Below the pieces are notes generated by a model. That model did not search any database, had not been told where the DNA came from, and was given only the letters and a program-made list of their open reading frames with translations. Below, piece after piece: positions 270 to 37,571 of a stretch of DNA of 64,000 bases. Position numbers and translations under genes: made by a program. Where the stretch lies: positions 1,863 through 65,862 of the forward strand of contig JAQWLS010000009.1 in NCBI GenBank assembly GCA_029247135.1, read 5' to 3'. Position 1 is the first letter of the stretch. Each line of letters begins with the position of its first letter. This DNA comes from Dehalococcoidia bacterium. Its GTDB lineage: Bacteria > Chloroflexota > Dehalococcoidia > UBA2979.

Positions 270-2078
270 TTAGGACTTACTTGCCCACTTGAGATAGCCC
301 CATGCATCAGCATCGTAACCACCATTCCACGCAACGTTTGGCGACCTGAATCTATTTCCATTAGTTCGCACAACACAGTTAGACCAAGCCACATCAAGGA
401 ACTTCTTATTCCAAGCTTCCCAGTCTTCAATTTCACCATCTTTAGCTTTCTCGATCAGGTCCATCCACTCGAGCTCGTCCTTAACACCTGGGCGATCTCT
501 TAGTGCGACGCTACCGTCGCCAACTGGAGCATTCATTCGGCCATCATACGAGTCAGCATATAGAACCGTCAGTGCGGGACTTCCCTGCTTAATCCAGTTA
601 CCGAAACCGATCAGCATGTGCTCAAAGGTACCAGTGGTCTGCAGAGAAATCATTTCACTGTACTCACGGTTATTGATCTGTAGTTCAATACCCATCTGGG
701 CTAGATCCTGTTGAATCATCTGTGCCGTAGCTGGAGCATCCAACCTCTCAGGTAGTACATCAGCTTTCAGTACGTTGCCTTCAACACCACCAGCAGCAGA
801 AATAAGCTTCGCAGCCTCAGCAGGGTTATATGCAACTGTATCGAGCTCTGGCACAAAAGCAATAGAACTAGGCTGGAACTGAAGTCGTCCACCCTGATCG
901 AACTCACCAAAGTATTCCTTCTGAATTCGGTCCTGTTGCAGCAGGAGCATAAGACCCTGTCGCACTCGCTTGTCTAAAATATCGGCACGCAGTCGGAATA
1001 CTCGACCACCCATTCCACCGTATGTTTCATGCTCCCAGTCCCCATTGTCCGCAATCGCCTCAGCATGCTCAGGAAGCAAGGTTCCACCTGTGAAGAGGTC
1101 GATATCACCAGCTTCGAATGCGAGTCCTTGCGCACCAGAGTCCGCAAAAATCGTTGTTTCAATCTTATCCAGATATGGACCAGTATCACCCCAGTAATCT
1201 GCATTCTTCGTGAGTTCATAACCCACGTTAGGATCGTAATTACCAAACTTGAAAGGTCCTGTACCGTTCAGAACACCTTCTTTAACCTGCTCGAGGGTGT
1301 TCATATCACCAATATTTGCACCACGGAAAAAGTCATACATATATCCGGTTGGCTTTGACAACCTCACCACGACGGTCTTGTCATCTGGAGTCTCAACAGA
1401 CGTGAAGTTAGCTGACATGAGGTTATACGGGCTTCCTACCACGCCTTCATGCTCACCAGCCATCATTAGTTCATATGACGCCTTTACATCAGCGGCAGTC
1501 ATCGGCTTACCATCATGGAATTGAACGTCTTTATCAATCAATTTGAATATGACCGTAGTACCACCGTCGGTAACTTCCCAGCTCTGCGCAAGACTTGGAT
1601 AAACACTAAAGTCTGCGTCGTACAACTCGTATAAAGGAGCCTTCTGATCACGTGCAAGCTGACGCTTGCCTCTCATCTGTCCCACCTCGACCAATCGGTC
1701 GAATATTCGAGAGTTCTGATTCATGTATGTGTTGTTACCAGCAGTGTTAAACGGCATCCGCACGAAGTTTGGAGTCGAGTTGGTGCCCGCCTTAAGCGTT
1801 CCACCCATCTTGATGCCACTGTCAGTTGCAGAGGTGGTGGCCACCGAAGTTGCAACTACCTGCTGAGTCGCGGCTGCAGTCGCGGCACTACTGCTTGACG
1901 AGCTACTGCTTGACGCACTGCTGCCACCTGAGCTCGAGGCGGATGTAGTTTCATCATCACTGCCACAACCAATCAATGCCGCACCAGCAAGTCCTGCGCC
2001 ACCTAGAGCAGCTCCACGCATCAAACGACGTCTGGAGATACTTCGGCGATTCCAATAATCACTCATATAAACCCTCAA
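270..2078 (-). CDS. ABC transporter substrate-binding protein, family 5 (peptide/nickel type), lipoprotein
   Basis: 602-aa ORF. The N-terminus has a twin-arginine-like signal (SRRRLMRGAALGGAGLAGAALIGC) with a lipobox Cys, followed by a Ser/Ala-rich low-complexity linker. The SBP_bac_5-like body contains WGDTGPYLDKIE and related motifs. It sits downstream of the Dpp-type permeases; the start may be the internal Met at 2063. Confidence 0.8.
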   Translation of the reverse strand: MRVYMSDYWNRRSISRRRLMRGAALGGAGLAGAALIGCGSDDETTSASSSGGSSASSSSSSSSSAATAAATQQVVATSVATTSATDSGIKMGGTLKAGTNSTPNFVRMPFNTAGNNTYMNQNSRIFDRLVEVGQMRGKRQLARDQKAPLYELYDADFSVYPSLAQSWEVTDGGTTVIFKLIDKDVQFHDGKPMTAADVKASYELMMAGEHEGVVGSPYNLMSANFTSVETPDDKTVVVRLSKPTGYMYDFFRGANIGDMNTLEQVKEGVLNGTGPFKFGNYDPNVGYELTKNADYWGDTGPYLDKIETTIFADSGAQGLAFEAGDIDLFTGGTLLPEHAEAIADNGDWEHETYGGMGGRVFRLRADILDKRVRQGLMLLLQQDRIQKEYFGEFDQGGRLQFQPSSIAFVPELDTVAYNPAEAAKLISAAGGVEGNVLKADVLPERLDAPATAQMIQQDLAQMGIELQINNREYSEMISLQTTGTFEHMLIGFGNWIKQGSPALTVLYADSYDGRMNAPVGDGSVALRDRPGVKDELEWMDLIEKAKDGEIEDWEAWNKKFLDVAWSNCVVRTNGNRFRSPNVAWNGGYDADAWGYLKWASKS

Positions 2079-2134
2079 CTTTCTTTTCAGTCCTGATTGT
2101 ATTCAACACTATTTACAAAACGTATCCGATAAAG

Positions 2135-2168
2135 ATACCTAACAGACTTTTGAAGGTCTGTTAGGTAT
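2135..2168. promoter_or_regulatory. Perfect 13-bp stem / 8-nt loop hairpin in the intergenic region between permease copy 2 and the SBP gene
   Basis: Read directly: atACCTAACAGAC-ttttgaag-GTCTGTTAGGTat. A U/A-rich sequence follows on both strands. The half-site ACCTAACAG also occurs at 5224-5232 in the operon promoter region. Confidence 0.6.
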
Positions 2169-2203
2169 ATAACAAAGAATTTATTTGCCTAATTCCCCAA
2201 GGC

Positions 2204-3115
2204 CTAGCTATCTCGTCTTCGAATTGGATCAAGTCTCTCGGCCAACACATCACTCAAAAAATTCAGAGATAACAAAAGTATGGCTATAAGCGCTATCGGG
2301 CCAAGCACGTAGTGAGGTGCGAATCTTGTATACCTACCTCCGTCCAATAGTAGCTGACCTAAGGTGGCATTCGGAGGTGCCGTGCCAAGACCCAAGTAAT
2401 TCAAAGCTGCCATCGTCAACACAGACGCGACCACCGCTAACGGCAACGCTACTGCAAACGCACCAAATGTGTTCACCGAAACATGACGCCATAAAATACG
2501 TCGCTCGGTTGCGCCAAGACACCGAGCAGCCGTCACATAGTCCCGCTCACGCTCACGCAGCACTCCGGCCCGGGCTAACCGTGCCATTTCATCAACACTA
2601 TAAATAGCAATTGCAATTCCAAGTGGCACGACTCCGCGACCTAAGTAATCACCTAAAATTGTGACCACTAAAATCGCAATCAAAATGCCCGGAAACGCGA
2701 GCAGCGTATCTACGCCACGCATGATCAAGATATCAGTTAAGCCGCCTCGCCACCCAGCAAGATAACCGAGCGCAATACCAACTATCCAACCGGCTACGAC
2801 TGCGCCAACTCCAACTATTACAGTCCTTCCCAGGCCGGACGCATTTCGCGCAAGTAAATCACGAGATATATGATCCGTCCCCATTGGGTGTTCCCAAGAA
2901 GGTGATTGGTTTTTTGGCACATTCTCAATCCAATTTGGGTCAGTGCCCCAAAGGAGTGGAACCAATGTGCCAAATAATAATAGAGTTGTAAGTCCAAATA
3001 ATGAGATGAATCCTCTAGGTGTTTTACCGACGGCACGGATCTCTTTTAGGAAAGATTTGAGAGCAGTAGATCGTACCTCAGGCGCAAAAAGCGGATCTCC
3101 TACACTCGCCGACAT
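2204..3115 (-). CDS. ABC transporter permease, DppC/OppC-like, tandem paralog 2
   Basis: 303-aa polytopic membrane protein with the BPD_transp_1 EAA-like region (VDEMARLARAGVLRERERDYVTAARCLGA). It is near-identical over long runs to the adjacent upstream copy. Confidence 0.85.
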   Translation of the reverse strand: MSASVGDPLFAPEVRSTALKSFLKEIRAVGKTPRGFISLFGLTTLLLFGTLVPLLWGTDPNWIENVPKNQSPSWEHPMGTDHISRDLLARNASGLGRTVIVGVGAVVAGWIVGIALGYLAGWRGGLTDILIMRGVDTLLAFPGILIAILVVTILGDYLGRGVVPLGIAIAIYSVDEMARLARAGVLRERERDYVTAARCLGATERRILWRHVSVNTFGAFAVALPLAVVASVLTMAALNYLGLGTAPPNATLGQLLLDGGRYTRFAPHYVLGPIALIAILLLSLNFLSDVLAERLDPIRRRDS

Positions 3116-3207
3116 CCTAGGCTCCTTTTTTTACACCAAGATGAACTCTTAGGCCAAGTCTTACCATTATGTAATCTACGTAGGCCTTAGTTAGCTGGCC
3201 AGTGGCA

Positions 3208-4107
3208 TTAGCCATCTCGTCTTCGAATTGGATCGAGTCTCTCCGACATCACGTCACTCAAAAAATTCAGAGATAACAAAAGTATCGCTAGAAGCGTAAC
3301 CGGACCAAGCACATAGTGAGGCGCAAATCGCATATAGCGACCTCCATCCAGTAGAAGCTGACCTAAGGTGGCATTCGGAGGTGCGGTGCCAAGACCCAGG
3401 TAATTCAAAGCTGCCATCGTCAACACAGAAGCTACTACCGCGAGCGGCAGCGCTACTGCAAACGCGCCAAATGTGTTCACCGACACATGTCGCCATAAGA
3501 TACGTCGCTCAGTCGCACCAAGGCACCGAGCAGCTGTCACATAATCACGCTCACGCTCACGCAGCACTCCGGCCCGGGCGAGCCGTGCCATGCCTGACAC
3601 ATTAAAAATAGCAATGGAGATTCCAAGTGGTATGATCCCGCCTCCCAAAATCGTTAATACTACAATCGCAATCAAAATGCCAGGAAACGCCAGCAGCGTA
3701 TCTACTCCGCGCATGATGAAAATATCGGTTAGACCTCCTCGCCACCCAGCAAGATAGCCAAGTGCTATACCAACTATCCAACCTGAGATCACGGCCCCGA
3801 TTCCGACCACTACTGTTCGCCCCAAACCAGAGGCATTTCGCGCAAGCAAATCACGGGATATATGATCCGTGCCCATTGGGTGTTCCCAAGAAGGTGATTG
3901 ATTTTTTGTCACATTTTCAATCCAATTTGGATCAGCACCCCAGAGCAATGGGACTAGAATCGCAAATAAAAATAAAAGTGATAAGCCAAATAATGAAATA
4001 AATCCTCTAGCTGTCTTGCCAACGGCTCGTATTTCTTTTAGCAGGGCGCTCAGAGTTGACTGAGGTATCTCGGACGCAAACAGAGGATCGACTGTGTTAG
4101 CTGACAT
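3208..4107 (-). CDS. ABC transporter permease, DppC/OppC-like, tandem paralog 1
   Basis: 299-aa ORF. It shares the identical C-terminal roughly 85 aa and the 32-aa run KNQSPSWEHPMGTDHISRDLLARNASGLGRTV with 2204-3115. It differs mainly at the N-terminus and by a 4-aa indel in one TM loop. Confidence 0.85.
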   Translation of the reverse strand: MSANTVDPLFASEIPQSTLSALLKEIRAVGKTARGFISLFGLSLLFLFAILVPLLWGADPNWIENVTKNQSPSWEHPMGTDHISRDLLARNASGLGRTVVVGIGAVISGWIVGIALGYLAGWRGGLTDIFIMRGVDTLLAFPGILIAIVVLTILGGGIIPLGISIAIFNVSGMARLARAGVLRERERDYVTAARCLGATERRILWRHVSVNTFGAFAVALPLAVVASVLTMAALNYLGLGTAPPNATLGQLLLDGGRYMRFAPHYVLGPVTLLAILLLSLNFLSDVMSERLDPIRRRDG

Positions 4108-4108
4108 C

Positions 4109-5074
4109 TTACGCCTCCGCTTTTCCGCCGAGACGAATTCTCGGATCTAGCCCAACGTATAACAGGTCCGTTATTAAATTAACGACCAAAAATATAATAA
4201 CTAGTAGCAAAGTGATGCCCTGCATCATCACATAATCTCGCTCACGCACTGCGCTCACTAATGCACGGCCTACACCCGGCCAGGTAAACACTTGCTCAAT
4301 TACAAGAGTACCCGCCAATACACCCCCTACCTGTAACCCCATAATTGTGACGACGGGAATGAGACTCGGCTTCAAAGCATGTCGAATCATGACGGTACGT
4401 TCACGGAGACCCTTAGCGCGAGCCGTTCGGATGTAATCTTCGGTCAATGTATCTAAAATCGACTGCCGTGTATACCGAGAAATCTGAGCCGCAACAATAC
4501 TACCTAACGCTATCGTAGGAAGTGCCAGATGCTTAAGTGCATCTAACGGATCTTCAGTGAACGGTACCCTCCCAGATGCCGGTAATATCTTAAGTTGAAC
4601 AGCAAAAATCAAAAGATACAGAAGACCCGCGATAAATGACGGAATACCTATGTTGATTCCAGTCCATAAGGAAGCAATATAATCCCACACTCCGCCTCTG
4701 TTCACGGCCGCCAGTATTCCTAATACCACGCCCCACACAAAGCCGTAAGTTAATGCGAATAATGCTAATTCAATCGTTGCCGGGAAAGCACTGTATATGA
4801 TGTCAGCTGCTGGGATACCCTTGTTCATTGAAATACCAAAGTCGCCCTGTATAGCGTTCCCAAGCCAGCTGAAATACTGCACATGAAAGGGGTCATTCAG
4901 ACCCATACGCTCCCGAGCGAGTTCATATGCCTCTTGGCTAGTCTGATTCTCACCACTCGAAGCTAAAAGCGCCGGGTCGCCCGGTATCAGCCTCACGACC
5001 ATAAAAACTAGAAACGATGCCAGGATCATCACCGGTATCATCTGAGTGACTAAACGGTGCACGAAATACTGCAT
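4109..5074 (-). CDS. ABC transporter permease, DppB/OppB-like
   Basis: 321-aa ORF with six predicted TM segments and the EAA-like motif (ARAKGLRERTVMIRHALKPSL). It is the first gene of the minus-strand operon and overlaps the next gene by 1-2 nt. Confidence 0.85.
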   Translation of the reverse strand: MQYFVHRLVTQMIPVMILASFLVFMVVRLIPGDPALLASSGENQTSQEAYELARERMGLNDPFHVQYFSWLGNAIQGDFGISMNKGIPAADIIYSAFPATIELALFALTYGFVWGVVLGILAAVNRGGVWDYIASLWTGINIGIPSFIAGLLYLLIFAVQLKILPASGRVPFTEDPLDALKHLALPTIALGSIVAAQISRYTRQSILDTLTEDYIRTARAKGLRERTVMIRHALKPSLIPVVTIMGLQVGGVLAGTLVIEQVFTWPGVGRALVSAVRERDYVMMQGITLLLVIIFLVVNLITDLLYVGLDPRIRLGGKAEA

Positions 5075-5102
5075 AGCGCCTGAGCTCCATTCTTTAAATT
5101 AA

Positions 5103-5232
5103 CCGTCAATACATTCGCATCGAGCCGTCAATCAGAAGTAAAATTAATCTCGATAAAAGATACAGCATCTGTTTATCATGCTGCATAGAATGTAGGTCTT
5201 GTAGCGCGGACGTTCTGTTATCTACCTAACAG
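5103..5232. promoter_or_regulatory. Divergent promoter region with candidate operator repeats
   Basis: Direct repeat CCGTCAAT x2 (5103-5110, 5125-5132). Inverted repeat CAGCAT-n9-ATGCTG (5163-5183). Everted repeat CTGTTA-tct-ACCTAACAG (5215-5232) that shares the half-site of the 2135-2168 hairpin. The region is AT-rich and lies between the divergent permease and CoA-transferase starts. Confidence 0.4.
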
Positions 5233-5292
5233 TCACCACATTAATTTCATGAAACTATAATGACGATCATTAGAACGATGTAAAAGGTATTT

Positions 5293-7689
5293 ATGAGTCA
5301 CGCATTTTCGGACATTCGCGTATTAGATCTATCGACCAATTTATCAGGTGCATTCGCAGCTCGATTTTTTGGAGACTTCGGAGCCGAAGTAATACTTGCT
5401 GAAAATGAGGCAGGACACGCACTCCGCAAGTCCAAAGTACTCCATGCCTATGCCAATTGGAATAAAAAATCAATCCAGATCCAAGACGATGATGAGCTCG
5501 ATGCCTTGATAAAGAGCAGCGATATCATCATCACAACTGAAATTAATAAAAAAGATGAGCTCTTCGCTCGAGTCAGCGAGAAAAGACTTCGTAGCTCGGT
5601 TCACCTATCTGTCACCCCGCATGGTCTAGATGGCAATCTTGCGGGAGTCCCTGGGAATGGCCTAACGGCTTCAGCACGAACAGGGTTCTCACATATTAAC
5701 GTGTATGAAAATGAGCCACCTCTGCAATTACCAGTCAATCTGACGGGTTTCATTGCTGGAGTATGTGGATTTATCACATCTGCGGCGGTTGCACTACAAA
5801 TGAGAAGTTCGGGTCTTGGCGATCTAGTCGATGTAAGCGAAGTTGAATCTCTTTCTCTCGCGTCTGCACCATGGGCCATTCAAGCCATCTTTGAAAATCG
5901 AGGATGGGCGAGAGGCGTACTCGGTGGCAAAGCACGAGGTATCCCCGGACCTCTCTGGGAAGCCAAGGATGGCCTTATTAATTTTGGCTTGGGTGATTTT
6001 AGGAATTGGACTGAGTCCATGAGAGTACTAGGCGTGGAAGAATATGCTGAAAATACCGATCTCATTCCAGATATAGGACGTCATGGCAATCCACAACTTC
6101 TAGAAGTTGTGGCGGCCGTTACTAGAACTGTGCCAAGCAAGAATCGTAAAGATCTATTCCTTGCGCTTTGCAAATTGCGCTCAATCACGGGAATGGTTCA
6201 GGATATGTCGGATATCGAATCGTGCGATCATCTAAATGCGCGAGACTATTTTCGCACCACGAATATCGATGACAAATTGGTCAAATTTCCGGGTCCATCA
6301 GCGCACTTATCCCCTCTCAAGTGGGAGCTACGATCTGATGCACCTTCGCTTGATCAAGATCGTGATCAAATAGATATCAAGCGAAACTCTGTCGCAATCA
6401 AAAATCCTAGTTCAATAGCGATGTCATCGGATGGACCACTAGCTGGAAAAAAAGTGCTCGCATTCACGCACGCCTGGTCAGGCACGTTCGCAACTGAGCT
6501 GTTAGGCCTCCTGGGAGCTGACGTGGTTCAAATTGAGGCCCCACACCGGGTGGATGTTTGGAGAAGAGTAAGTAATAAGGTGCCTGAAGGTGTGCGAAAT
6601 ACCGATATCGATCAACACTTTCTGAATACGCAAGGTCTGTATAATTCAGCGAACTTAAATAAACGTGCAATAACACTGGACATGAGAACGCCGGAAGGAC
6701 AGGAAATATTTTGGCAGCTCGTACCCCATTTTGACATAGTTATGGACAATTTCACACCGCAAATTTTGCCGCGGTGGGGAATTACACTGGAAACGCTCGC
6801 TGAAAAACGCCCTGGTATCGTATTTGCGTCATTATCTGCTTACGGCGCTACCGGACCATATCAAGAATTTCCCGGAAATGGCGGCACGACTGAACCTATG
6901 TCCGGCCTGTCGTCAATTCATGGCTATGAAGGTGATCTGGGGATGAACACGGGAGGAATGATTCCCGATCCAATATCCGGATATTTCACAATTGCTTCAG
7001 TTATAGCCGCGCTACATGAGTCGAGCAAAACCGGAGAAGCGCAACGCATCGAAGGTTCGATGCTCGAATCTCTCACAGCAATTGTCGGCGATGCACTAGG
7101 TGAATATCAGCTCAGCGGTGAGGTTCCCAGACCGCATGGCAACAAACACCCTGAAATTGCCCCGCACGGTGTGTACCAAACCAAAAATAGTGAATGGATT
7201 GCGATTTCAGCCGATAATGAAATCGCCTGGGATAACCTCGCCAAGCTATTAGGACTTACTGAAGATTCACAATTCAAAAGCCGGCAACAACGAAAAGAAA
7301 ATGAATCTCTTCTAAACGAAATCATAGGTAAATGGGCCCAAAATCAATCAGCACAAGGCATGGAAAACCAACTAACTGAATTAGGCGTATGTGCTGCACG
7401 GGTAGCTGAACCTTACAAGATATATAGCGAACCTGATGCTAATTTCCTCTCGAGAGATTTTTTATCGTATATTAAGCATCCAGAGACAGGAGTCAACGTA
7501 CTCCCCGCACGTGCCTGGAAGTTTGAAAGTATTAAATCATCTGAAGTTCGTCCGGCCCCCTGTGTCGGTCAACATAGTAAAGAAGTGTTGCAGGAATATT
7601 TAAATATCACCGATGAGAAATATCAAGAACTGATTGAGAACACCGTAACCGGAACAATATACGACTACGAAAGGTACAAACAAATATGA
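5293..7689 (+). CDS. Fused tandem family-III CoA-transferase (two CaiB/BaiF domains in one 798-aa polypeptide)
   Basis: Domain 1 starts with the canonical MSHAFSDIRVLDLSTNLSGAFAARFFGDFGAEVI. Domain 2 restarts at about aa 385 with LAGKKVLAFTHAWSGTFATELLGLLGADVVQIEAP. The stop overlaps the next start (ATGA at 7686-7689). Confidence 0.8.
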   Translation: MSHAFSDIRVLDLSTNLSGAFAARFFGDFGAEVILAENEAGHALRKSKVLHAYANWNKKSIQIQDDDELDALIKSSDIIITTEINKKDELFARVSEKRLRSSVHLSVTPHGLDGNLAGVPGNGLTASARTGFSHINVYENEPPLQLPVNLTGFIAGVCGFITSAAVALQMRSSGLGDLVDVSEVESLSLASAPWAIQAIFENRGWARGVLGGKARGIPGPLWEAKDGLINFGLGDFRNWTESMRVLGVEEYAENTDLIPDIGRHGNPQLLEVVAAVTRTVPSKNRKDLFLALCKLRSITGMVQDMSDIESCDHLNARDYFRTTNIDDKLVKFPGPSAHLSPLKWELRSDAPSLDQDRDQIDIKRNSVAIKNPSSIAMSSDGPLAGKKVLAFTHAWSGTFATELLGLLGADVVQIEAPHRVDVWRRVSNKVPEGVRNTDIDQHFLNTQGLYNSANLNKRAITLDMRTPEGQEIFWQLVPHFDIVMDNFTPQILPRWGITLETLAEKRPGIVFASLSAYGATGPYQEFPGNGGTTEPMSGLSSIHGYEGDLGMNTGGMIPDPISGYFTIASVIAALHESSKTGEAQRIEGSMLESLTAIVGDALGEYQLSGEVPRPHGNKHPEIAPHGVYQTKNSEWIAISADNEIAWDNLAKLLGLTEDSQFKSRQQRKENESLLNEIIGKWAQNQSAQGMENQLTELGVCAARVAEPYKIYSEPDANFLSRDFLSYIKHPETGVNVLPARAWKFESIKSSEVRPAPCVGQHSKEVLQEYLNITDEKYQELIENTVTGTIYDYERYKQI

Positions 7690-10600
7690 GCTTCCAAAAA
7701 ATATTGATCGCTAACCGTGGTGAAATTGCGATACGCATAATGCGAGCCGCAAATGATCTTGGAATTCAAACAGTAGCTATATATTCAGAGGATGATTCGA
7801 CTTCATTACATAGAACTATTGCTGACGAGAGTTTTGCTCTTTCCGGTAGAGGTGTGCCGGCATATCTCGATATGGACACAATTATTGATGGTGCAAAAGA
7901 AATGAATTGTGATGCCGTCCACCCAGGTTACGGATTCTTAGCTGAGAATTCACAGTTTGCAAAAAAATGTGCCGAACAAAATCTAACTTTCATCGGACCC
8001 GAGGTTGAACATCTTGAATTGTTTGGAGATAAAGGACGTGCACGAGCGGCCGCCACAGCCGCTGGAGTCCCAATTCTTAAGGGTATTGACCATTCTGTTT
8101 CGCTTGAAGAGGCACAAGAATTTTACTCAAGTCTTGGGGCAGATGCGGGCATGATGATCAAGGCTGTTGCTGGTGGCGGAGGACGAGGATCGCGAGCTGT
8201 AACCGATGCACTTGAAATAGAAGAAGCCTATAAAAGATGCCAGTCGGAGGCAACCAGCGCCTTTGGTAATGGAGAACTCTATGTGGAAGAATTCATTCAA
8301 CAGGCAAGACATATTGAGGTTCAAATTCTTGGAGATAAAAACGGGAATATCATCAACCTTGGCGAACGTGAATGCAGTGTCCAACGACGATATCAAAAAA
8401 TAGTTGAAATTGCGCCTGCTCCCCATCTTCCCGAGCGGCTGCGTGACGACATTATCGAAGCCGCCCAACGTCTTGCCCAAAGTGTAAATTATTCGAATCT
8501 CGGCACCTTTGAATTTCTCGTGAACACCGACGCGTCTGACGGTGGCGATCCATTTTCATTCATTGAAGCAAATGCTCGGCTCCAGGTCGAACATACCGTC
8601 ACAGAGGCTGTGACCGGTGTAGATATTGTGCAAACCCAAATTGAACTAGCTGGCGGAACACTACTTGCAGAGCTCGGATTAGATGACCCGGATATCGGAG
8701 TACCTCGAGGGTTTGCTATCCAAGCTCGTATAAATATGGAGACACTCGGTGTGGACGGAACCGTGCGCCCAGCAGGAGGAACTCTCCGTTCGTACGATGC
8801 ACCAAATGGCCCAGGTGTCCGAACCGATGGGTTTGGATATGCGGGTTACACAACCAGTCCAATGTTCGATTCATTACTTGCAAAAGTAATTACACATTCA
8901 CCGTCTAATAAATTTAAGACTGCTGTACAGCGATCACTTCGTGCGCTTTCTGAATTTCGAATAGAAGGCGTAGCCACAAATATCCCCTTCTTGATGAATG
9001 TTCTAACAAACACGGACTTCATTGATGGATCGGTACATACACGATGGGTCGATGAAAAAATAGCTGACCTCGCAATAGCAGATACTGAGAGCCAACAAAA
9101 ACGCTGGATTGAAAGTGCAGAGGCACCAGTCCCTGTGGCCGCAGGTCAACAGGCAAGCCCGCTCACTGGGACCGCTCCAGTCATGGTAGACACATCAGAC
9201 CCTTTGGCACTTTTTAGTTATGACCGTCAGGTGAAAGAAGCTGAAAAAGTTGAGCTCCCGGCAGAGGATCCGGGAGCTAGTCTGATAGGCCCTGATGGAT
9301 CTATTGGAGTCGGCGCTCCAATTCAAGGAACGATCATTCAAATCTCCGTCAGCGAAGGAGATTCGATACGCATGGGCCAGGAAATGCTGATTATGGAAGC
9401 CATGAAAATGGAGCACGTAATTAAGGCTGATGTAAGCGGAATCGTTAAAAAAATCAATGTTGAACCGGGAGACATCATTGTCGAGGGTCATCCATTAATT
9501 TTTGTCGAAGAAGGTGAATTGGACGAAGCCAGTTTCGAAGAGGAAGAAGCCATAGACCTTGATTACATCCGACCTGATCTAGAAGAAGCCTACGCTAGGC
9601 ACGCATTCACCCTCGATGAGAATAGACCCGAAGCTGTAGCAAAACGATATGGACGTGGCTATCGAATGCCGCGTGAAAATATCGCGCAACTGGTTGATGA
9701 AGGAACATTCAAAGAATATGGACCGTTAGTGGTAGCACGGCAACACCAACGATTTAGCAGCGAGGAACTCAGAAAAAATACTCCGGCAGATGGTCTCGTA
9801 TCAGGTATCGGCTCAGTGAATGGAAAACACTTTTCCCCTGAGCAGGCTCGGACAATGGTTATATCCTATGACTACACCGTACTTGCTGGGACGCAAGGTG
9901 GGCGTAACCACTACAAACAAGATCGTATGTTCGAGCTCGCACAGAGATTTAAAATTCCACTAGTCTTTTTCACTGAAGGTGGGGGTGGACGTCCAGGGGA
10001 TGATCGGATCGGGCCTGGAGTGGCGTTCGATACCCATACATTCACACAATTCTCTCAGCTTAGTGGCTGGATTCCACTCGTAGGAATCACGAATGGGCGG
10101 TGCTTTGCAGGCAATACTGCACTCTTGGCCTGTTGTGATGTAATCATTGCGACTGAAGGATCTACGGTTGCTATGGGCGGGCCAGCGATGGTTGAAAGTG
10201 GCGGCCTAGGTGTATACACACCAGAAGAACTCGGTCCGATGTCATTCCAAGTGCCAAATGGAGTGGTTGACATTCTGGTTAAAGATGAAGAAGAAGCTGT
10301 GGATGTTGCTAAAAAATACCTATCGTATTTCCAAGGCCCGATAGATGAATGGGAGGCTCCCGATCAGCGGCCTCTTAGACATATTGTGCCAGAAAACCGA
10401 AAACAACTATATGACATGCGTGAAGTAATAAACACGATCGCCGATAAAGATTCAGTACTTGAAATACGGGAAAAGTTCGGTATCGGTATTATCACGGCCT
10501 TCATGCGAATTGAGGGTAAACCCATGGCGGTGATAGCTAATAATCCTCATCATATCGCTGGCGCAATTGACTCAGATGGAGCTGACAAGGGTGCTCGTTT

Positions 10601-11123
10601 TGTTCAGCTATGTGACGCATTTGATATTCCGATTTTAAGTTTGATGGATTGTCCAGGAATGATGGTAGGTCCGGATGTTGAATCTACTGCATTGGTCCGG
10701 CACTGCGTCCGTATGTTTAATGCCGGTGCAAATCTTACAACGCCGATGTTCCTCACAGTTGTTCGCAAGGCCTACGGACTAGGTGTACAAGCTATGTGTG
10801 GTGCTAGCTCCTTTGTAGGATTCTTCTCAGTCGCATGGCCCACAGCAGAATTTGCGGGTATGGCAATTGAAGGGTCTGTAAAACTCGGCTATCGCAAGGA
10901 GCTGGAAGCAATAGAAGATCCAGCTGAACGACTAGCTGAATATCAAGATCGAGTAGATCGTGCATACGAAAGCGCAAAGGCTGTTAACGCTAGCGCTGGT
11001 TATGGCATTGATGACGTAATCGATCCGGCAGATACACGATCGTGGCTTGTCATGGGACTAAATAGTGTCCCCACGCCGCCCGAGCGTACGGAAAAGAAAT
11101 ATCCCTTTATTGATACCTGGTAG
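7686..11123 (+). CDS. Single-chain biotin-dependent acyl-CoA carboxylase (biotin carboxylase + BCCP + carboxyltransferase, 1145 aa)
   Basis: The N-terminal BC domain has MSFQKILIANRGEIAIRIMRAA, the GGGGRG loop and the ATP-grasp. The biotinyl domain has the EAMKM motif (about nt 9395-9410). The C-terminal roughly 520 aa is an AccD/PccB-like carboxyltransferase (GGGGRPGDD..., CPGMMVGP...). The domain order is as in long-chain acyl-CoA carboxylase (LCC)-type enzymes. Confidence 0.85.
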   Translation: MSFQKILIANRGEIAIRIMRAANDLGIQTVAIYSEDDSTSLHRTIADESFALSGRGVPAYLDMDTIIDGAKEMNCDAVHPGYGFLAENSQFAKKCAEQNLTFIGPEVEHLELFGDKGRARAAATAAGVPILKGIDHSVSLEEAQEFYSSLGADAGMMIKAVAGGGGRGSRAVTDALEIEEAYKRCQSEATSAFGNGELYVEEFIQQARHIEVQILGDKNGNIINLGERECSVQRRYQKIVEIAPAPHLPERLRDDIIEAAQRLAQSVNYSNLGTFEFLVNTDASDGGDPFSFIEANARLQVEHTVTEAVTGVDIVQTQIELAGGTLLAELGLDDPDIGVPRGFAIQARINMETLGVDGTVRPAGGTLRSYDAPNGPGVRTDGFGYAGYTTSPMFDSLLAKVITHSPSNKFKTAVQRSLRALSEFRIEGVATNIPFLMNVLTNTDFIDGSVHTRWVDEKIADLAIADTESQQKRWIESAEAPVPVAAGQQASPLTGTAPVMVDTSDPLALFSYDRQVKEAEKVELPAEDPGASLIGPDGSIGVGAPIQGTIIQISVSEGDSIRMGQEMLIMEAMKMEHVIKADVSGIVKKINVEPGDIIVEGHPLIFVEEGELDEASFEEEEAIDLDYIRPDLEEAYARHAFTLDENRPEAVAKRYGRGYRMPRENIAQLVDEGTFKEYGPLVVARQHQRFSSEELRKNTPADGLVSGIGSVNGKHFSPEQARTMVISYDYTVLAGTQGGRNHYKQDRMFELAQRFKIPLVFFTEGGGGRPGDDRIGPGVAFDTHTFTQFSQLSGWIPLVGITNGRCFAGNTALLACCDVIIATEGSTVAMGGPAMVESGGLGVYTPEELGPMSFQVPNGVVDILVKDEEEAVDVAKKYLSYFQGPIDEWEAPDQRPLRHIVPENRKQLYDMREVINTIADKDSVLEIREKFGIGIITAFMRIEGKPMAVIANNPHHIAGAIDSDGADKGARFVQLCDAFDIPILSLMDCPGMMVGPDVESTALVRHCVRMFNAGANLTTPMFLTVVRKAYGLGVQAMCGASSFVGFFSVAWPTAEFAGMAIEGSVKLGYRKELEAIEDPAERLAEYQDRVDRAYESAKAVNASAGYGIDDVIDPADTRSWLVMGLNSVPTPPERTEKKYPFIDTW

Positions 11124-11142
11124 AGATTACCTAGTAGTCTCT

Positions 11143-12744
11143 TTAATCAAGGTATTGATAGGCTGGAATCGTAAGAAAATCGACGAACTCGTCGCTGAGA
11201 ACCAATCGATCTAATATTTCCGCCGCGTCATCAAAATGCTGATTTTGTTCGATATTGAGAATCGCAAGCTCTTGAGTCCGAAGCTCTGAATATAAATCCG
11301 AAGTAATAATTCGGCCATCATCGAGCGGCACAGCATGAATAATCCACTGCCAAAGCTGCGCGCGACTGATTTCAGCGGTTGCAGCATCCTCCATCAGATT
11401 ATTAATCGCAGCCGCCCCGTTGCCACTTAACCATTGATTTATATATTGCAGAGCTACCGAAATATTGAGCCGAACCCCCGCTTCAGTTGTGTCCCCCTCA
11501 GTGAGATTCGCTCCGCTCAGCGCTGCAGCATCAGCCAACACATCATCGCGTTGCCTATCCTTCTGATTATCGTTCTCCCCAAGTACCTGTTGAAACGAGG
11601 CTCGCGCAGTTGGTTCAAGATCAGGGTGTGCTATCCAAGTACCATCAAATCCATTTTGTGACTCTCTGTCTTTATCGGCCTTCACTGCCGCGAGTGCCAT
11701 CTCGTTCAACTCTGCATCTCTTCGGCTAGGAATAAATGCAGACATCCCGCCCATCGCATGAGCTCCGCGCCGATGGCAAGTCTTTACAAGTAAATCTGTA
11801 TATGCGCTCATAAACGGAACAGTCATCCCAATTTGAGCTCGGTCTGGAAGGGCAAACTCACGACGATTTCTAAATCTCTTAATCACACTAAAAATATAAT
11901 CCCAGCGACCCGCATTTAAGCCTGAGATATGCTCTCGTAACTCAAAAAGAATTTCGTCCATCTCATAGGCAGCCGTGATAGTTTCAATCAAAACAGTAGC
12001 CCGTATTGAACCACGACTGATACCTAATTTATCCTGACTGAAATTGAATACACTGTTCCATAACCTAGCCTCTAAATGCCCTTCTAACTTGGCTAAATAG
12101 AAATACGGACCAGTGTTTCGTGCGAGTCGCTCTTCAGCATTGTGAAATAAATAAAGTCCCGCATCGAAAAGTGCCGCCGAACATGGATTCCCATCTACGA
12201 ACAGATGCTTTTCCTCTAAGTGCCAACCACGAGGTCGAACAATGAGCGTGACGTCATCCTTAATCAGTTTGTAAGACTTACCGTTAGGTTCGTCCAAAAT
12301 CATGTCCCCACGAACTGCATCAGCAAGATTAATCTGAGCTTCAACCACATTTTCCCAAGTGGGTGAAAGTGAATCCTCCAGATCTGCCATAAACGCGTCT
12401 GCAGCAGAATTAAGTGCGTTAATCATCATTTTTCTATCGCACGGGCCTGTGATCTCAACCCAACGCTTCTCTAAATCTTCAGGGCAATCAGCTACAACCC
12501 AATCACTCTCACGAATACCAATAGTCTCACTCAAAAAATCAGGTAACTCACCAGTGTCAAACTCATGCTGACGTGTAATACGCGCCTCCAAAAGCTCAAG
12601 CCGAGCACTATTGAACTCGCGTTGCAAAGATGCAATGAATTTCAGGGCATCAACACTTAATATATTCTTCCATTTATCAGGAAAAATACCTCTAATCTCA
12701 ATTCCTTCAGCTATTTCTTGAATCAATGGACTTGAATTGGACAT
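11143..12744 (-). CDS. aceB: Malate synthase A
   Basis: 533-aa ORF of the length and architecture of malate synthase A, with conserved catalytic-region motifs. It is convergent with the carboxylase gene. Confidence 0.8.
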
Positions 12745-12847
12745 ATAGAACCTCGTGTACTTAAAGGGCAGATAATTTCAACCCGACAGAGAGTAACAAA
12801 TTTTACAAAGGCTGTCAGTTAGATAACTCGATTACCGAATAAACTAC

Positions 12848-13120
12848 TTAACCTCCACCAAGTGGCGGCACCAAATAGATATCACTATCAGCAGCAACGG
12901 TTTCTGTTAACCCCCTCGAATCCAGAATCGAACCATCGATGGCAACAGCAAGATCTGATCTCAAACCATCTGAGGTAATAATCTGTGCAGTCAGTTCCGG
13001 ACAGATAGCTTCAAGATTTCTGAAAACTTCCCTCAAAGTAGTTCCTGTCACCTCCACAGAATCACGCATTTCACAAAAAGTTCGTAACGCGTTAGGAAGG
13101 TGAATAATCGGCATAAACAC
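12848..13120 (-). CDS. MoaD/ThiS-like ubiquitin-fold sulfur-carrier protein (C-terminal GG)
   Basis: 90-aa ORF ending ...LVPPLGGG immediately before the stop. It lies 10 nt downstream of the XDH-family gene on the same strand. Confidence 0.65.
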   Translation of the reverse strand: MFMPIIHLPNALRTFCEMRDSVEVTGTTLREVFRNLEAICPELTAQIITSDGLRSDLAVAIDGSILDSRGLTETVAADSDIYLVPPLGGG

Positions 13121-13130
13121 TCAAAAATTC

Positions 13131-15446
13131 TTAGGACTCAAGCTCAGCTAACTCTCTGAGAATACTCTCAGGATTGGCCGGAAGGCTACTGACCCGAATA
13201 CCAACAGCATCATAGATTGCGTTCGCAATAGCTGCTAATGGAGGGACAATCGGCACCTCTCCGACTCCTCGAACTCCAAACGGATGTCCGGGATTTGGAA
13301 CTTCAACCAGCACCGTGTCGATCGCTGGAAGGTCATTTGCAACCGGCATTCGATAATCAAGAAAAGATGAATTAGCCATCGACCCATCATCGTTATATAC
13401 ATACTCCTCGTTCAGTGCCATACCTATACCCTGCACAGCGCCACCTTGTATCTGGCCCTCAACATACGCGGGATGAATTGCTCGCCCCACATCCTGAATA
13501 GCCGTATATCTAAGCACCGTCACCTTGCCAGTATCTCTATCGACATGGACATCAGCGATATGTGCGCCAAAACACGCGCCGACTTTACCAACATTCGTGG
13601 ATACGAGATCTGCCCGTCCCTGTACCATTCCACCAGTTGCTGGAAGTTTTGCGGCCGCATCCTTAAAGGTCATCACAAGATCGCCTGGTCCATGCAAAGA
13701 CGCATCTATCGGGCTGTAATTTACATCATCAACTGATACTTCCCATATTTTTGCGATCCGTTCCTCGAGCTGGTTGCTGATATCCACGGCAGCTTGGTAG
13801 ACCGCCCAGCCGGTGGCAAAAGTCGTCCGACTCCCACCAGTATTACCGGTATAACCGATTGTGTCGGTATCCCCCACAAGGGAATTAATATCTTCGTAGT
13901 TAATGCCAAGAGTGTCCGCAAATTGCATTGCCAGTGAAGCTCTCTGACCTCCGATATCCACTGAGCCCGTAATGAGCGTTACCTTGCCATCCTCATGAAC
14001 ATTGGCATATGCGCTTGACTCGCCCCCGCCATTTTGCCAAAAACCCATAGCGACCCCACGACCCACGTCTTTTTGAGTTATTTCCGCACGATAATGTGGG
14101 TGTTCACTTGTGGTGGTAATTACCTCACGAGATCCTACGGATCCATGCGTTGCACCATCACTTCTGCGGTCGCCTTCAACAGCGGCATTCATATCACGAA
14201 GCTCCATGGGATCAATATCAAGCATCTCAGCCAATTCATCCAACACAGCCTCAACCGCAAATTCTGAAGCAGGTGCGCCTGGAGCACGATATGCAGCCGT
14301 CTTCGGTCGATTGAGCACGATATCCAATCCAAGTATTCGCTGATGGGGAACAACATACGGACCTAGGGCACATCGTGCTCCGCCAGCCACAGGCGATCCC
14401 GGATAGGCGCCTGCCTCGTACTCTAATCGAATGTCGGCTGCTACTATTTTACCTTCACGCGTAGCACCGATTTTCACAAACGATCGGGTACCAGATGTGG
14501 GTCCTGTGGCCTCCAACACCTCAGTTCTATTCATGGTTACTTGGACAGGTCGACCAGATTTACGCGATAAAAGGGCCGCTATTGGTTCTAAATAGACAAC
14601 GGTCTTACCTCCGAAGCCTCCACCAATTTCAGCAGGAATAACTCGCAAGTCACCTAAACTTATACCAAGCACCCGACTCACATTCTGTCTGATGCCAAAG
14701 GCACCTTGCGTACTTGTCCAGAGTGTTATCTTTCCGTCCTGATTCCAAATCGCTGTGGCATTGTGGGTCTCTATATATCCCTGATGACTCATCGCGGTCT
14801 CGTATACTCGTTCCAGCACCACTTCAGCTTGAGAAAATCCCTCCTCAATATCACCGAATCCCATTTCAACGGTTCTGGCGATATTTGACGGCCTGCCATC
14901 GACTGGTTGAAATAAATCTTCTACAAGAGAATCAAGTCCATCATCGTGAAGAATTGGAGCGTCAGGTGCGAGAGCGTCATCAATAGTCACAACTGGCGGT
15001 AGTACTTCGTACTCTACCTCAATCAGATCAAGTGCATCCTCAGCTATATGCACGTCGGTAGCAGCTATCGCAGCAACCGGATGCCCCTTGAACAGGACCT
15101 TACGGCGCGCCATCAGCCTTTCAATGTCCCACTGTGCCGGCATTGGTCCACGCAAAGTCTGTAATATGGCTTCAACAGGCTCGGGGAAATCGTCACTGGT
15201 TACAACGGCCAGCACACCTGGAAGCGCCAGGGCTTTCGAAACATCAATATTCTTAATAATTGCATGCGCATGGGGGCTTCGCTTGACTCGGCCGACAATC
15301 ATATTTGGTAATCGCACGTCCGCACCGTATATGGCTCGACCCGTGACTTTATCAATTCCATCCGGTCGCACCGTATTTGTTCCTACTGACGAAATTTTTG
15401 GCTCTAACATAGTCATCTGCATTACTTCCTTAAAATACGATGGCAT
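13131..15446 (-). CDS. Xanthine dehydrogenase/aldehyde oxidase family molybdopterin-binding large subunit (CoxL-like), orphan
   Basis: 771-aa ORF with Ald_Xan_dh_C and C2-type motifs (GGGFGGK, EIGGGFGGKT, GQGxxT region). No FeS or FAD subunit genes are adjacent. Confidence 0.8.
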   Translation of the reverse strand: MPSYFKEVMQMTMLEPKISSVGTNTVRPDGIDKVTGRAIYGADVRLPNMIVGRVKRSPHAHAIIKNIDVSKALALPGVLAVVTSDDFPEPVEAILQTLRGPMPAQWDIERLMARRKVLFKGHPVAAIAATDVHIAEDALDLIEVEYEVLPPVVTIDDALAPDAPILHDDGLDSLVEDLFQPVDGRPSNIARTVEMGFGDIEEGFSQAEVVLERVYETAMSHQGYIETHNATAIWNQDGKITLWTSTQGAFGIRQNVSRVLGISLGDLRVIPAEIGGGFGGKTVVYLEPIAALLSRKSGRPVQVTMNRTEVLEATGPTSGTRSFVKIGATREGKIVAADIRLEYEAGAYPGSPVAGGARCALGPYVVPHQRILGLDIVLNRPKTAAYRAPGAPASEFAVEAVLDELAEMLDIDPMELRDMNAAVEGDRRSDGATHGSVGSREVITTTSEHPHYRAEITQKDVGRGVAMGFWQNGGGESSAYANVHEDGKVTLITGSVDIGGQRASLAMQFADTLGINYEDINSLVGDTDTIGYTGNTGGSRTTFATGWAVYQAAVDISNQLEERIAKIWEVSVDDVNYSPIDASLHGPGDLVMTFKDAAAKLPATGGMVQGRADLVSTNVGKVGACFGAHIADVHVDRDTGKVTVLRYTAIQDVGRAIHPAYVEGQIQGGAVQGIGMALNEEYVYNDDGSMANSSFLDYRMPVANDLPAIDTVLVEVPNPGHPFGVRGVGEVPIVPPLAAIANAIYDAVGIRVSSLPANPESILRELAELES

Positions 15447-20671: not shown

Positions 20672-20747
20672 TGGTGCGCCGAGAGGGATTCGAACCCCCG
20701 ACTTGCGGTTCCGAAGACCGCCGCTCTGTCCCCTGAGCTACCGGCGC
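20672..20747 (-). tRNA. tRNA-Arg (anticodon TCG)
   Basis: Hand-folded cloverleaf. Acceptor GCGCCGG/TCGGCGC, anticodon stem GCGGT/ACCGC with loop CTTCGGA, T-arm GGGGG-TTCGAAT-CCCTC, encoded CCA, 76 nt. Confidence 0.8.
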
Positions 20748-20758
20748 ATTGCTATATC

Positions 20759-20850
20759 TGGCGGAGAGAGAGGGATTCGAACCCTCGAATCAAGTTACCC
20801 CGATTACACGCTTTCCAGGCGAGCCCGTTCAACCACTCCGGCATCTCTCC
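20759..20850 (-). tRNA. tRNA-Ser (anticodon GGA)
   Basis: Type II tRNA with a long variable arm. Anticodon loop CTGGAAA, T-loop GGTTCGAATCC, encoded CCA, about 92 nt. Confidence 0.8.
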
Positions 20851-20893
20851 GTAAGATAAAACTTTAGTCTATCTCCTCGTACTGGTCATTTTC

Positions 20894-20985
20894 TGGCGGA
20901 GAGGATGGGATTCGAACCCATGAAGCGACATTCGCCGCTTACTCGTTTTCGAGACGAGCGCCTTCAACCACTCGGCCACCTCTCC
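20894..20985 (-). tRNA. tRNA-Ser (anticodon CGA)
   Basis: Type II tRNA. Anticodon stem CTCGT/ACGAG with loop CTCGAAA, long variable arm, GGTTCGAATCC T-loop, encoded CCA. Confidence 0.8.
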
Positions 20986-29953: not shown

Positions 29954-30030
29954 TGGTCGGGGTGCCCGGATTTGAACCGGGGGCCTCTTCGTCCCGAACG
30001 AAGCACTCTGCCAGGCTGAGCTACACCCCG
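29954..30030 (-). tRNA. tRNA-Pro (anticodon CGG)
   Basis: Hand-folded. Acceptor CGGGGTG/CACCCCG, anticodon stem CTTCG/CGAAG with loop TTCGGGA, T-arm CCCGG-TTCAAAT-CCGGG, encoded CCA, 77 nt. Confidence 0.8.
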
Positions 30031-36492: not shown

Positions 36493-37039
36493 ATTCTCTC
36501 AACTCCTCATCCCACGGCTCTCCAGTTGCCTTGGCTACGACATCTAGCATATCCTCAACGTCGCCTTTAAGTGCGTCATCAGGTTGTTCACCCAAGACGG
36601 CTAATGCATCTAAAAATAACGCACGGGCTTTTTCATAAAGCTCTTGAGGCGTCTCAGTCGGGGCCTGAAACGAAAATTTCGGACGCTCTAGCGCATTAGC
36701 TATGTACTCCGAACACCAACCAGCCGTATACAGAATATACGCGTCTACAGGATCAAATTTCACAGCCTGCTTCAAATAATCCAAACCTTCACCAAACTTA
36801 CGTTGTCTCGTAACTAACGTCTGGCCCAGATAAGAATACCCTGCTGCAAATTCAGGATGATCTGCAACAATTCCTCGGACCTGTTCAATCGCCGTCGAAA
36901 TATCACCGGCTGCATGCAGCTGCATAGCTCCGCGCAGTAGGGTATTTGGATCAAGATTTGTCATACCTATAACTCTAACCGGCATCACGTCTAAATTTTT
37001 TAAATTCGCAAAGCTAAAACTAAAATAATGCGCTAACAT
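36470..37039 (-). CDS. Tetratricopeptide-repeat protein
   Basis: TPR-like helical repeats (AAGYSYLGQTL..., YLKQAVKFDP...). The true start is probably an internal Met. Confidence 0.55.
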   Translation of the reverse strand: MLAHYFSFSFANLKNLDVMPVRVIGMTNLDPNTLLRGAMQLHAAGDISTAIEQVRGIVADHPEFAAGYSYLGQTLVTRQRKFGEGLDYLKQAVKFDPVDAYILYTAGWCSEYIANALERPKFSFQAPTETPQELYEKARALFLDALAVLGEQPDDALKGDVEDMLDVVAKATGEPWDEELREYAPPRIR

Positions 37040-37541: not shown

Positions 37542-37571
37542 GATATTTATACGTTAGCGAAGGAGAAAAAC

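Follow-up and report, generated by a model that had tools for sequence, protein, structure and literature searches.

A two-domain family III CoA-transferase gene overlapping the gene of an LCC-family acyl-CoA carboxylase in uncultured marine Dehalococcoidia

CoA-transferases whose single chain holds two tandem type III (family III) domains with a poorly conserved linker between them are a described class in which the dimethylsulfoniopropionate (DMSP) CoA-transferase/lyase DddD was the only member characterised before PtmU4, an enzyme that converts acyl-CoAs to thioacids (PMC6006322). The two domains of DddD are of the CaiB type (PMC7174347), and the SAR202 genomes studied by Landry et al. contain expanded sets of CaiB paralogues that were proposed to place carboxylates on CoA without ATP (PMC5395668). 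Carboxylases of the LCC family are described, in the part of PMC6491548 that cites Tran 2015, as homohexamers that take C2–C16 acyl-CoAs. Here we analyse a 64,000-nucleotide stretch of a Dehalococcoidia bacterium genome (assembly GCA_029247135.1, contig JAQWLS010000009.1, positions 1,863 to 65,862; hereafter the window) in which the gene for a two-domain family III CoA-transferase overlaps the gene for a single-chain carboxylase of the LCC family. Both proteins belong to described families. Our literature searches found no description of a conserved operon joining a two-domain transferase to an LCC-type carboxylase, nor of a distinct transferase subfamily with a highly conserved N-terminal half that lacks the catalytic Asp, a subfamily that we encountered only in metagenome-assembled genome (MAG) and metagenome records.

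Architecture of the transferase and the carboxylase

The pair is laid out as follows, with all positions numbered within the window.

5293–7689, plus strand: fused family III CoA-transferase gene ('CaiB2'), 798 amino acids (aa), matching Pfam PF02515 (CoA_transf_3) in two stretches
5293–6354, plus strand: N-terminal CaiB domain, residues 1–354, with Gly152 (codon 5746–5748) in place of the catalytic Asp
6355–6432, plus strand: inter-domain linker, residues ~355–380, variable in length and sequence in the family alignment and poorly conserved
6433–7686, plus strand: C-terminal CaiB domain, residues 381–798, with the catalytic Asp559 (codon 6967–6969, GAT)
7686–7689, plus strand: ATGA, in which the transferase stop and the carboxylase start overlap, read from the sequence
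7686–11123, plus strand: gene for the single-chain biotin-dependent acyl-CoA carboxylase of the LCC family, 1,145 aa, recognised by its Pfam domain order
7686–9065, 9312–9500 and 9645–11066, plus strand: biotin carboxylase (BC), biotin carboxyl carrier protein (BCCP) and carboxyltransferase (CT) domains of that enzyme, with biotinyl-Lys574 at codon 9405–9407

A preliminary description of this DNA had named a CaiB–CaiB fusion, a BC–BCCP–CT carboxylase and malate synthase A; the three open reading frames (ORFs) lie exactly where it placed them, Pfam and TIGR01344 agree with the names, and the overlap of the carboxylase ATG with the transferase stop that it reported is present. The overlap indicates translational coupling of the transferase and the carboxylase, and 5293–11123 is best explained as a two-gene operon. 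When 4900–13300 was scanned for promoter and terminator consensus sequences, no signal rose beyond that expected from shuffled sequence.

The transferase scored 420 bits against PF02515 (cut-off 23.3), and its halves were compared separately with the solved family III structures. The C-terminal half gave a best E value of 2.5e-49 and aligned over its full length with BbsF, SUGCT, YfdE and Frc; its best solved relatives were 9fn0_B (BbsF), SUGCT and YfdE, and D559 lay opposite the catalytic Asp of SUGCT and BbsF. The N-terminal half (best E value 1e-15) aligned best with the BbsE subunit (9fn0_A) and SUGCT, and here G152 stood opposite the SUGCT catalytic Asp. We then counted residues at both positions in 83 family members from related loci. 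The catalytic position of the C-terminal half was Asp in 83 of 83 sequences; that of the N-terminal half was Gly in 80, Ser in 2 and Ala in 1, and Asp in none. The same asymmetry was repeated in five remoter two-domain proteins from the same loci. The N-terminal half is nevertheless strongly conserved, with dozens of invariant positions in the family alignment, and its NWNK motif is the counterpart of NxNK(R/K)S in the C-terminal half and SUGCT. Having lost the catalytic Asp, it would not, as judged from these alignments, be a competent transferase domain.

An AlphaFold2 model of the whole chain, built from a 20-sequence alignment, reached a mean predicted local distance difference test score of 86 and a predicted template-modelling score of 0.92, and in it both halves are confidently placed relative to each other in what is predicted to be one compact unit. 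Each half is predicted to adopt the fold of an entire family III monomer and superposes on BbsF and SUGCT at a template-modelling (TM) score of 0.85–0.90. Enzymes of family III assemble from such monomers as interlocked dimers, and their catalytic Asp forms the anhydride and thioester intermediates. A Foldseek search with the model matched only family III chains of ~400 residues, with BbsF as the best (TM 0.90, target-normalised; 30% identity) and with the BbsE chain recovered at 18% identity. We read the modelled transferase as a putative intramolecular pseudo-heterodimer with one catalytic centre at Asp559, in which the N-terminal half is probably an obligatory partner 'subunit' that also contributes part of the substrate or CoA site. 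The preliminary description had likened the fusion to a two-subunit family III enzyme. That comparison holds insofar as the N-terminal half is most like the Asp-less BbsE-type subunit (9fn0_A) and the C-terminal half like the catalytic BbsF-type subunit (9fn0_B); the halves are not equivalent, with the Asp lost from the first. The nearest characterised relatives of the C-terminal half all use succinyl-CoA with dicarboxylates, and a dicarboxylate is therefore a possible acceptor for the predicted transferase.

The immediate family of this transferase is small. A sensitive search with the N-terminal half alone against 1.84 billion representative proteins returned only 26 representatives at E ≤ 1e-30. 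Weaker matches were mostly proteins of 780–860 aa, aligned within their first ~370 residues at 24–31% identity; as the N-terminal half is thus closest to the N-terminal halves of other two-domain proteins, the fusion is old and common to the wider two-domain class. In a plasmid collection drawn mainly from cultured bacteria, the two-domain matches found by tblastn were all below 30% identity and annotated only as 'CoA transferase'. All of the relatives whose origin we examined, namely the top 120 proteins from the search of metagenome proteins and the best 80 of the 233 loci in genomes, came from MAGs or metagenomes. They belonged to Dehalococcoidia/Chloroflexota, Pseudomonadales (including Ca. 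Azotimanducaceae) and other marine Gammaproteobacteria, with single bins from Planctomycetia, Alphaproteobacteria and Myxococcota.

The carboxylase shows the Pfam order Biotin_carb_N, CPSase_L_D2 (ATP-grasp), Biotin_carb_C, Biotin_lipoyl and Carboxyl_trans. Its EAMKME biotinylation motif, at K574, is also found in 33 of 38 full-length relatives. The best solved relative is the LCC of Mycobacterium avium subsp. paratuberculosis (4rcn; 1,046 bits, end to end), followed by 5fif (555 bits) and 5h80, domain structures deposited only as 'Carboxylase', which we take to be from a Deinococcus single-chain carboxylase. The CT domain is 54% identical to that of 4rcn over 505 residues without a gap and scores 607 bits against LCC, 200–233 bits against 12S and PCC-beta chains, 150 against MCC-beta and 134 against GCC-beta. 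As LCC, and after it 12S/PCC-beta, score above MCC-beta and GCC-beta, the enzyme is assigned on similarity to the LCC family and to the alpha-carboxylating lineage. The idea that it serves as the acetyl- or propionyl-CoA carboxylase of an assimilation cycle does not agree with this relationship to 4rcn, and a CT of the methylcrotonyl- or geranyl-CoA type, which the preliminary description had considered as the contrary case, scores lowest of all.

Orthologues of the window enzyme, 62–69% identical to it across phyla, occur in uncultured marine bacteria. The identity falls to 52–58% for other LCC paralogues from the same loci. Two or three LCC-type paralogues stand in tandem or near the transferase at L001:14412–21254 and at L016, L035, L046, L106 and L162, and we read the family as having diversified locally. 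Matches of ~5.1 kb in seven metagenome loci at first resembled an intein or insertion in the carboxylase; they proved to be a stand-alone carboxyltransferase gene upstream of an intact carboxylase gene.

Recurrence of the pair and its genomic context

Of the first contexts, those of four diverse homologues, two had a carboxylase directly downstream of the transferase, one had two tandem carboxylases 2 kb away and one had none within 10 kb. Among the best 80 of the 233 transferase loci in genomes, 79 were assessable, and in 34 of these a carboxylase 64–99% identical to that of the window lay directly downstream on the same strand. Of the 34 adjacent pairs, 31 had a gap of −4 to +56 nt between the genes, and four further loci had a carboxylase within 10 kb. 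Paired loci belonged to Dehalococcoidia, Pseudomonadales/Azotimanducaceae, other Gammaproteobacteria, one member of the Planctomycetia and one of the Alphaproteobacteria, all uncultured. The reverse scan of metagenomes with the carboxylase returned 80 loci, 57 of them assessable at ≥60% identity; the fused transferase was directly upstream in 24 and directly downstream in one. The pairing is far from random, given that both families are rare, and the two genes form a recurrent but facultative two-gene module. No third partner is conserved: no other cluster of neighbouring ORFs occurred in more than 9 of the 42 linked loci.

Where the fused gene is missing, other family III genes often take its place near the carboxylase. 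In five metagenome relatives (L093–L096 and L125; for example, L094:2524–10079), the carboxylase is 82–83% identical to ours but has no fused transferase beside it. Its gene instead lies behind a stand-alone carboxyltransferase gene (473 aa), and two overlapping single-domain family III genes (407 and 401 aa; the second is cut to 362 aa at the contig end in L093) follow it in convergent orientation. L099 and L103 have the upstream carboxyltransferase gene without the family III pair, and further loci that lack the fused gene have a single family III gene near the carboxylase. At L133:3571–5992 (WLWI01000001.1, a complete-genome contig of 4.6 Mb), the N-terminal half (370 aa) and the C-terminal half (416 aa) appear as separate ORFs directly upstream of the carboxylase, the result of either a frameshift or a natural division into two subunits.

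In a neighbour-joining tree, transferases linked to a carboxylase formed a basal grade and unlinked ones fell into derived, mostly gammaproteobacterial clades, with contexts that include a LarA-like protein, an amidohydrolase, an enoyl-CoA hydratase and a methyltransferase. In one gammaproteobacterial clade (L049, L054–L056, L060, L063, L065, L068, L073, L076, L079 and L081), the transferase gene comes right after a LarA-like gene (lactate racemase family) with no carboxylase nearby, which suggests a different substrate context for these paralogues.

These counts bear on the reading that the two genes merely lie side by side, as co-located or co-regulated members of two paralogue-rich families with no biochemical link. 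Both families are indeed expanded, to the point that one locus can hold several CaiB and LCC paralogues, and the association is missing in about half of the loci. However, 34 genome and 24 metagenome loci from several phyla repeat the gene order, the strand and the gap of −4 to 56 nt, and other family III genes often adjoin the carboxylase where the fused gene is missing. We hold an association without biochemical meaning to be very improbable.

The flanks of the pair contain the following features.

270–5074, minus strand: divergent ATP-binding cassette (ABC) importer genes for a family-5 solute-binding protein and three permeases (Pfam SBP_bac_5 and BPD_transp_1)
5075–5292: intergenic region between the divergent ABC-transporter genes and the transferase gene, the presumed promoter site, taken from the ORF map
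11143–12744, minus strand: malate synthase A gene, 533 aa (TIGR01344)

The malate synthase is genuine (724 bits against TIGR01344, cut-off 594.5) and its gene is convergent with that of the carboxylase, their stop codons being 19 nt apart. It is adjacent to the pair only where the transferase is at least 90% identical to that of the window (L006–L008, L086–L089 and L092, with L160 counted by its carboxylase) and at L091, where the carboxylase is 85% identical. At no remoter locus is it adjacent, including Dehalococcoidia in which the transferase is 59–70% identical. Because its adjacency is confined to close relatives, malate synthase is a lineage-specific neighbour outside the conserved module, and its inclusion as a linked member in the preliminary description is not borne out. 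A ThiS/MoaD-like ORF and a molybdenum hydroxylase gene have the same narrow distribution.

A fused SmtAB-like succinyl-CoA:dicarboxylate CoA-transferase, an acyl-CoA carboxylase and malate synthase had been combined into a route of glyoxylate and dicarboxylate assimilation and assigned to the 3-hydroxypropionate bicycle and the methylaspartate cycle. In its favour are the proximity of a true malate synthase A, the similarity of the C-terminal half to enzymes that act on succinyl-CoA and dicarboxylates, and the proposal that SAR202 genomes carry parts of a 3-hydroxypropionate cycle (PMC5395668). The transferase, however, scores far below the cut-offs of the equivalog models for Mct (TIGR04253; 31.6 bits, cut-off 725) and for succinyl-CoA:mesaconate CoA-transferase (NF041294; 176 bits, cut-off 700), the carboxylase is of the LCC type, and the same pair occurs in heterotrophic Gammaproteobacteria beside TonB-dependent receptors. 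A scan of the window ORFs of 120 aa or more, all but a few that overlap longer ones, gave no HpcH/CitE-type (malyl- or citramalyl-CoA) lyase, whose absence had already been remarked upon, and no isocitrate lyase. We consider this route very doubtful.

A second CoA-transferase/MaoC locus had been invoked in the same context. Its genes exist: a MaoC-type hotdog pair (HadA/HadB-like; 37038–37997, plus strand) is followed by a family III gene (38013–39440, plus strand; 475 aa). Linkage to the pair is not seen, and ~26 kb of mostly unrelated genes lie in between, including many housekeeping genes (mnmA, ndk, tsaE, gyrA, ileS and moaC). The 475-aa protein is itself atypical: only residues ~200–445 match the family, covering about the first 60% of the fold, and they are preceded by ~200 unassigned residues.

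The recurrent neighbours fit uptake and CoA-dependent catabolism. Genes of the window's Opp/Nik-type ABC importer families stand beside the pair, or beside its transferase, at 8 linked loci; such an importer recurs in several lineages of Chloroflexota but is not universal there. Among solved proteins, the window binding protein comes nearest to AgaA, which binds agropinic acid, and to NikA, which binds nickel/metallophores, but with no more than ~70 bits, a weak hint that the ligand may be an opine-like or chelating carboxylate rather than a peptide. In Gammaproteobacteria, the pair is preceded by genes for a TonB-dependent receptor, a TPR protein and an FG-GAP/ASPIC protein. Around the carboxylase orthologues we found short-chain dehydrogenases/reductases (SDRs; 16 loci), enoyl-CoA hydratases (9) and Amidohydro_3 proteins (9), and also luciferase-like monooxygenases, an acyl-CoA dehydrogenase, a P450, enolase-superfamily proteins and MFS transporters. 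This gene set has been tied by Landry et al. to the oxidation of recalcitrant dissolved organic matter by SAR202 (PMC5395668).

The window cluster at 270–5074 comprises, besides the binding protein (270–2078), one OppB-like and two OppC-like permease genes (2204–3115 and 3208–4107), with no ATPase gene anywhere in the window. Downstream of malate synthase lie the ThiS/MoaD-like ORF, a molybdenum hydroxylase large subunit, an FGE-sulfatase-family protein, a metallo-beta-lactamase-fold protein, an SDR and an amidohydrolase. The ThiS/MoaD-family ORF (12848–13120, minus strand; 90 aa, GGG end) sits between malate synthase and the molybdenum hydroxylase, whose large-subunit gene (13131–15446) stands alone with no CoxM/CoxS-type partner genes adjacent. 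Molybdenum-cofactor genes are dispersed, with moaC at 31754, moaE at 45922 and moaA at 55182. Past ~20 kb, the window is mostly housekeeping: tRNAs, mnmA, ndk, tsaE, gyrA, ileS, dnaB, glyA, murJ, mreB and the trp operon, with the scattered molybdenum-cofactor genes among them. The Rfam scan found tRNAs only, three of them clustered at 20672–20985 on the minus strand (Arg-TCG, Ser-GGA and Ser-CGA) and a single tRNA-Pro(CGG) at 29954–30030, also on the minus strand. A glutamine-synthetase-like ORF (39571–40590, minus strand; 339 aa) matches under half of the catalytic-domain profile in Pfam and may be a truncated or divergent protein of that kind. Two ORFs had no Pfam match at E ≤ 1e-5: 48060–49265 (plus strand; 401 aa) and 61520–62449 (minus strand; 309 aa), the latter within the trp operon with trpE-like and trpG-like genes on either side. 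The nearest genome records are MAGs of uncultured marine Chloroflexota/Dehalococcoidia, in which the transferase is 90–93% and the carboxylase 95–99% identical to those of the window.

Proposed activities of the pair

We favour, with confidence a little above even, an entry step into catabolism in which an imported carboxylic acid is activated with CoA at no cost in ATP and is then alpha-carboxylated at the expense of ATP. An exogenous free carboxylic acid would be taken up, and the single active site of the two-domain transferase would pass CoA to it, with succinyl-CoA or acetyl-CoA as the likeliest donor thioester. The LCC-type enzyme would then use ATP and bicarbonate, through biotinyl-Lys574, to carboxylate the alpha-carbon of the acyl-CoA, and the resulting substituted malonyl-CoA would enter the CoA-dependent catabolism of marine dissolved organic acids. 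What we infer here is which reaction precedes the other, the identity of the CoA donor and the catabolic role. An order in which the CoA ester is made first and carboxylated second fits the gene order, the translational coupling and the replacement of the fused gene by other family III genes at some loci.

Several observations weigh against this proposal. At roughly half of the loci with the fused transferase, no carboxylase lies within 10 kb, and at roughly half of those with a carboxylase orthologue, no fused transferase lies within 6 kb. Relatives of the window carboxylase have a median identity of 67% to it, and those of the window transferase only 49%; the much better conservation of the carboxylase suggests a function independent of this particular partner. 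An epimerase or mutase that would process a substituted malonyl-CoA was not seen in the flanks. The characterised two-domain enzymes DddD and PtmU4 do more than transfer CoA, and by analogy the transferase could consume the product of the carboxylase instead of supplying its substrate. Both activities are predicted from sequence.

The last of these analogies leads to a different function, in which the transferase would carry out a second chemical step in the manner of DddD or PtmU4, for example an elimination acting on a zwitterionic osmolyte like DMSP or a substitution on the carboxylated thioester, and the carboxylase would process or supply a short acyl-CoA. Both characterised two-domain type III enzymes are bifunctional or non-canonical (PMC6006322), DddD was reported as the top Swiss-Prot hit of SAR202 CaiB paralogues (PMC5395668), the transferase family is confined to marine and uncultured taxa, and the N-terminal half is conserved far beyond the needs of a mere scaffold. 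The surroundings speak otherwise: neither the window flanks nor the recurrent neighbours include the genes that accompany DddD (the BCCT transporter DddT, the DddB and DddC dehydrogenases and a LysR-type regulator such as DddR), no PtmA3-like acyl-CoA synthetase lies within two genes, with no AMP-binding enzyme among the annotated neighbours, and the ThiS/MoaD-like ORF at 12848–13120 is restricted to close relatives. No NCBIfam model that would indicate DddD matched the transferase. We judge a second step of this kind unlikely. A PtmU4-type link to a sulfur carrier was considered separately for the ThiS/MoaD-like ORF with its GGG end and was set aside, as that ORF occurs only in close relatives, alongside the molybdenum hydroxylase.

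The pair might also form a closed loop of CoA recycling. Here the substituted malonyl-CoA would donate its CoA to the next free acid, so that the net reaction would be the ATP-dependent carboxylation of that acid to a malonate or other dicarboxylate derivative with only catalytic CoA, resembling the loop of formyl-CoA transferase and oxalyl-CoA decarboxylase run toward carboxylation. Such a loop would suit a pair that is the sole conserved unit, with no conserved third enzyme. The nearest characterised relatives of the C-terminal half exchange CoA between dicarboxylates (succinyl-CoA with benzylsuccinate, glutarate or mesaconate; or oxalate), and PtmA3 and PtmU4 provide a documented case of a two-domain type III enzyme working with catalytic CoA (PMC6006322). 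On the other side, there is no evident physiological need for a free alkylmalonate, and the recurrent enoyl-CoA hydratase, acyl-CoA dehydrogenase and SDR neighbours suggest that the CoA ester is processed further and not released. We regard the loop as quite improbable. It and the second chemical step deserve weight among the alternatives to CoA activation followed by carboxylation; the glyoxylate and 3-hydroxypropionate route is the least supported of the three.

A bolder form of these ideas would have the transferase and the LCC-type carboxylase act as one machine, possibly a physical complex, with chemistry undescribed for either family: a CoA-catalytic, ATP-driven carboxylation of free acids, or a DddD- or PtmU4-like second reaction for which the Asp-less N-terminal half would supply the extra function. 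We think this rather unlikely.

Whichever reaction comes first, a conserved, coupled partner must make or consume the CoA ester of the carboxylase, and the transferase offers an experimental handle on the substrate of an LCC. To our knowledge, no study since the 2015 description of LCC-type single-chain carboxylases has established what they act on in the cell or what role they serve. The transferase, as modelled, clearly exemplifies a fused pseudo-heterodimer in which one of the two active sites is dead. Both genes occur widely among SAR202-type Chloroflexota and oligotrophic marine Gammaproteobacteria, and as these groups are thought to degrade recalcitrant deep-ocean dissolved organic carbon, the substrate would be of ecological interest.

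Comparison with described enzymes

By description, DddD and PtmU4 resemble the window transferase in having two tandem CaiB-like domains in a chain of ~800 aa with a poorly conserved linker. The context differs: a biotin carboxylase accompanies the window transferase in place of ddd genes or a PtmA3-type ligase. The pair thus offers a third functional context for two-domain CoA-transferases, in which new chemistry has not been demonstrated.

Mct, SmtAB and the mesaconate transferase share the family III fold, with no partners of their cycles in the window, and Mct structures ranked only about 40th in the fold search, at 18% identity. SmtAB of Chloroflexus is said to have been described by Friedmann et al. 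in 2006 as an enzyme of two subunits. A functional parallel is given by Frc with Oxc, which act on oxalate, and by ScpC with ScpB of the Escherichia coli sbm operon: in both, a CoA-transferase is paired with an enzyme that changes a carboxyl group on a CoA ester, so that CoA can be recycled. These systems decarboxylate, without ATP or a biotin carboxylase, and ScpC is not a family III enzyme.

The best match in both sequence and fold is BbsEF, the succinyl-CoA:(R)-benzylsuccinate CoA-transferase (9FN0 and 9FOL), to whose catalytic subunit the C-terminal half aligns with 172 bits and a TM score of 0.90. In a pairwise alignment, the partner subunit BbsE also lacks an Asp at the catalytic position, as does the N-terminal half of the window transferase. 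BbsE and BbsF are separate polypeptides of an anaerobic toluene pathway, and the identity to them is only 30% for the C-terminal and 18% for the N-terminal half. For the carboxylase, the likeness to M. avium LCC (4rcn) and the 5FIF/5H80 enzyme extends to a single chain of ~120 kDa, the order BC–BCCP–CT, end-to-end homology and the biotin motif; the window carboxylase differs from LCC in that its gene is often preceded by that of a two-domain CoA-transferase.

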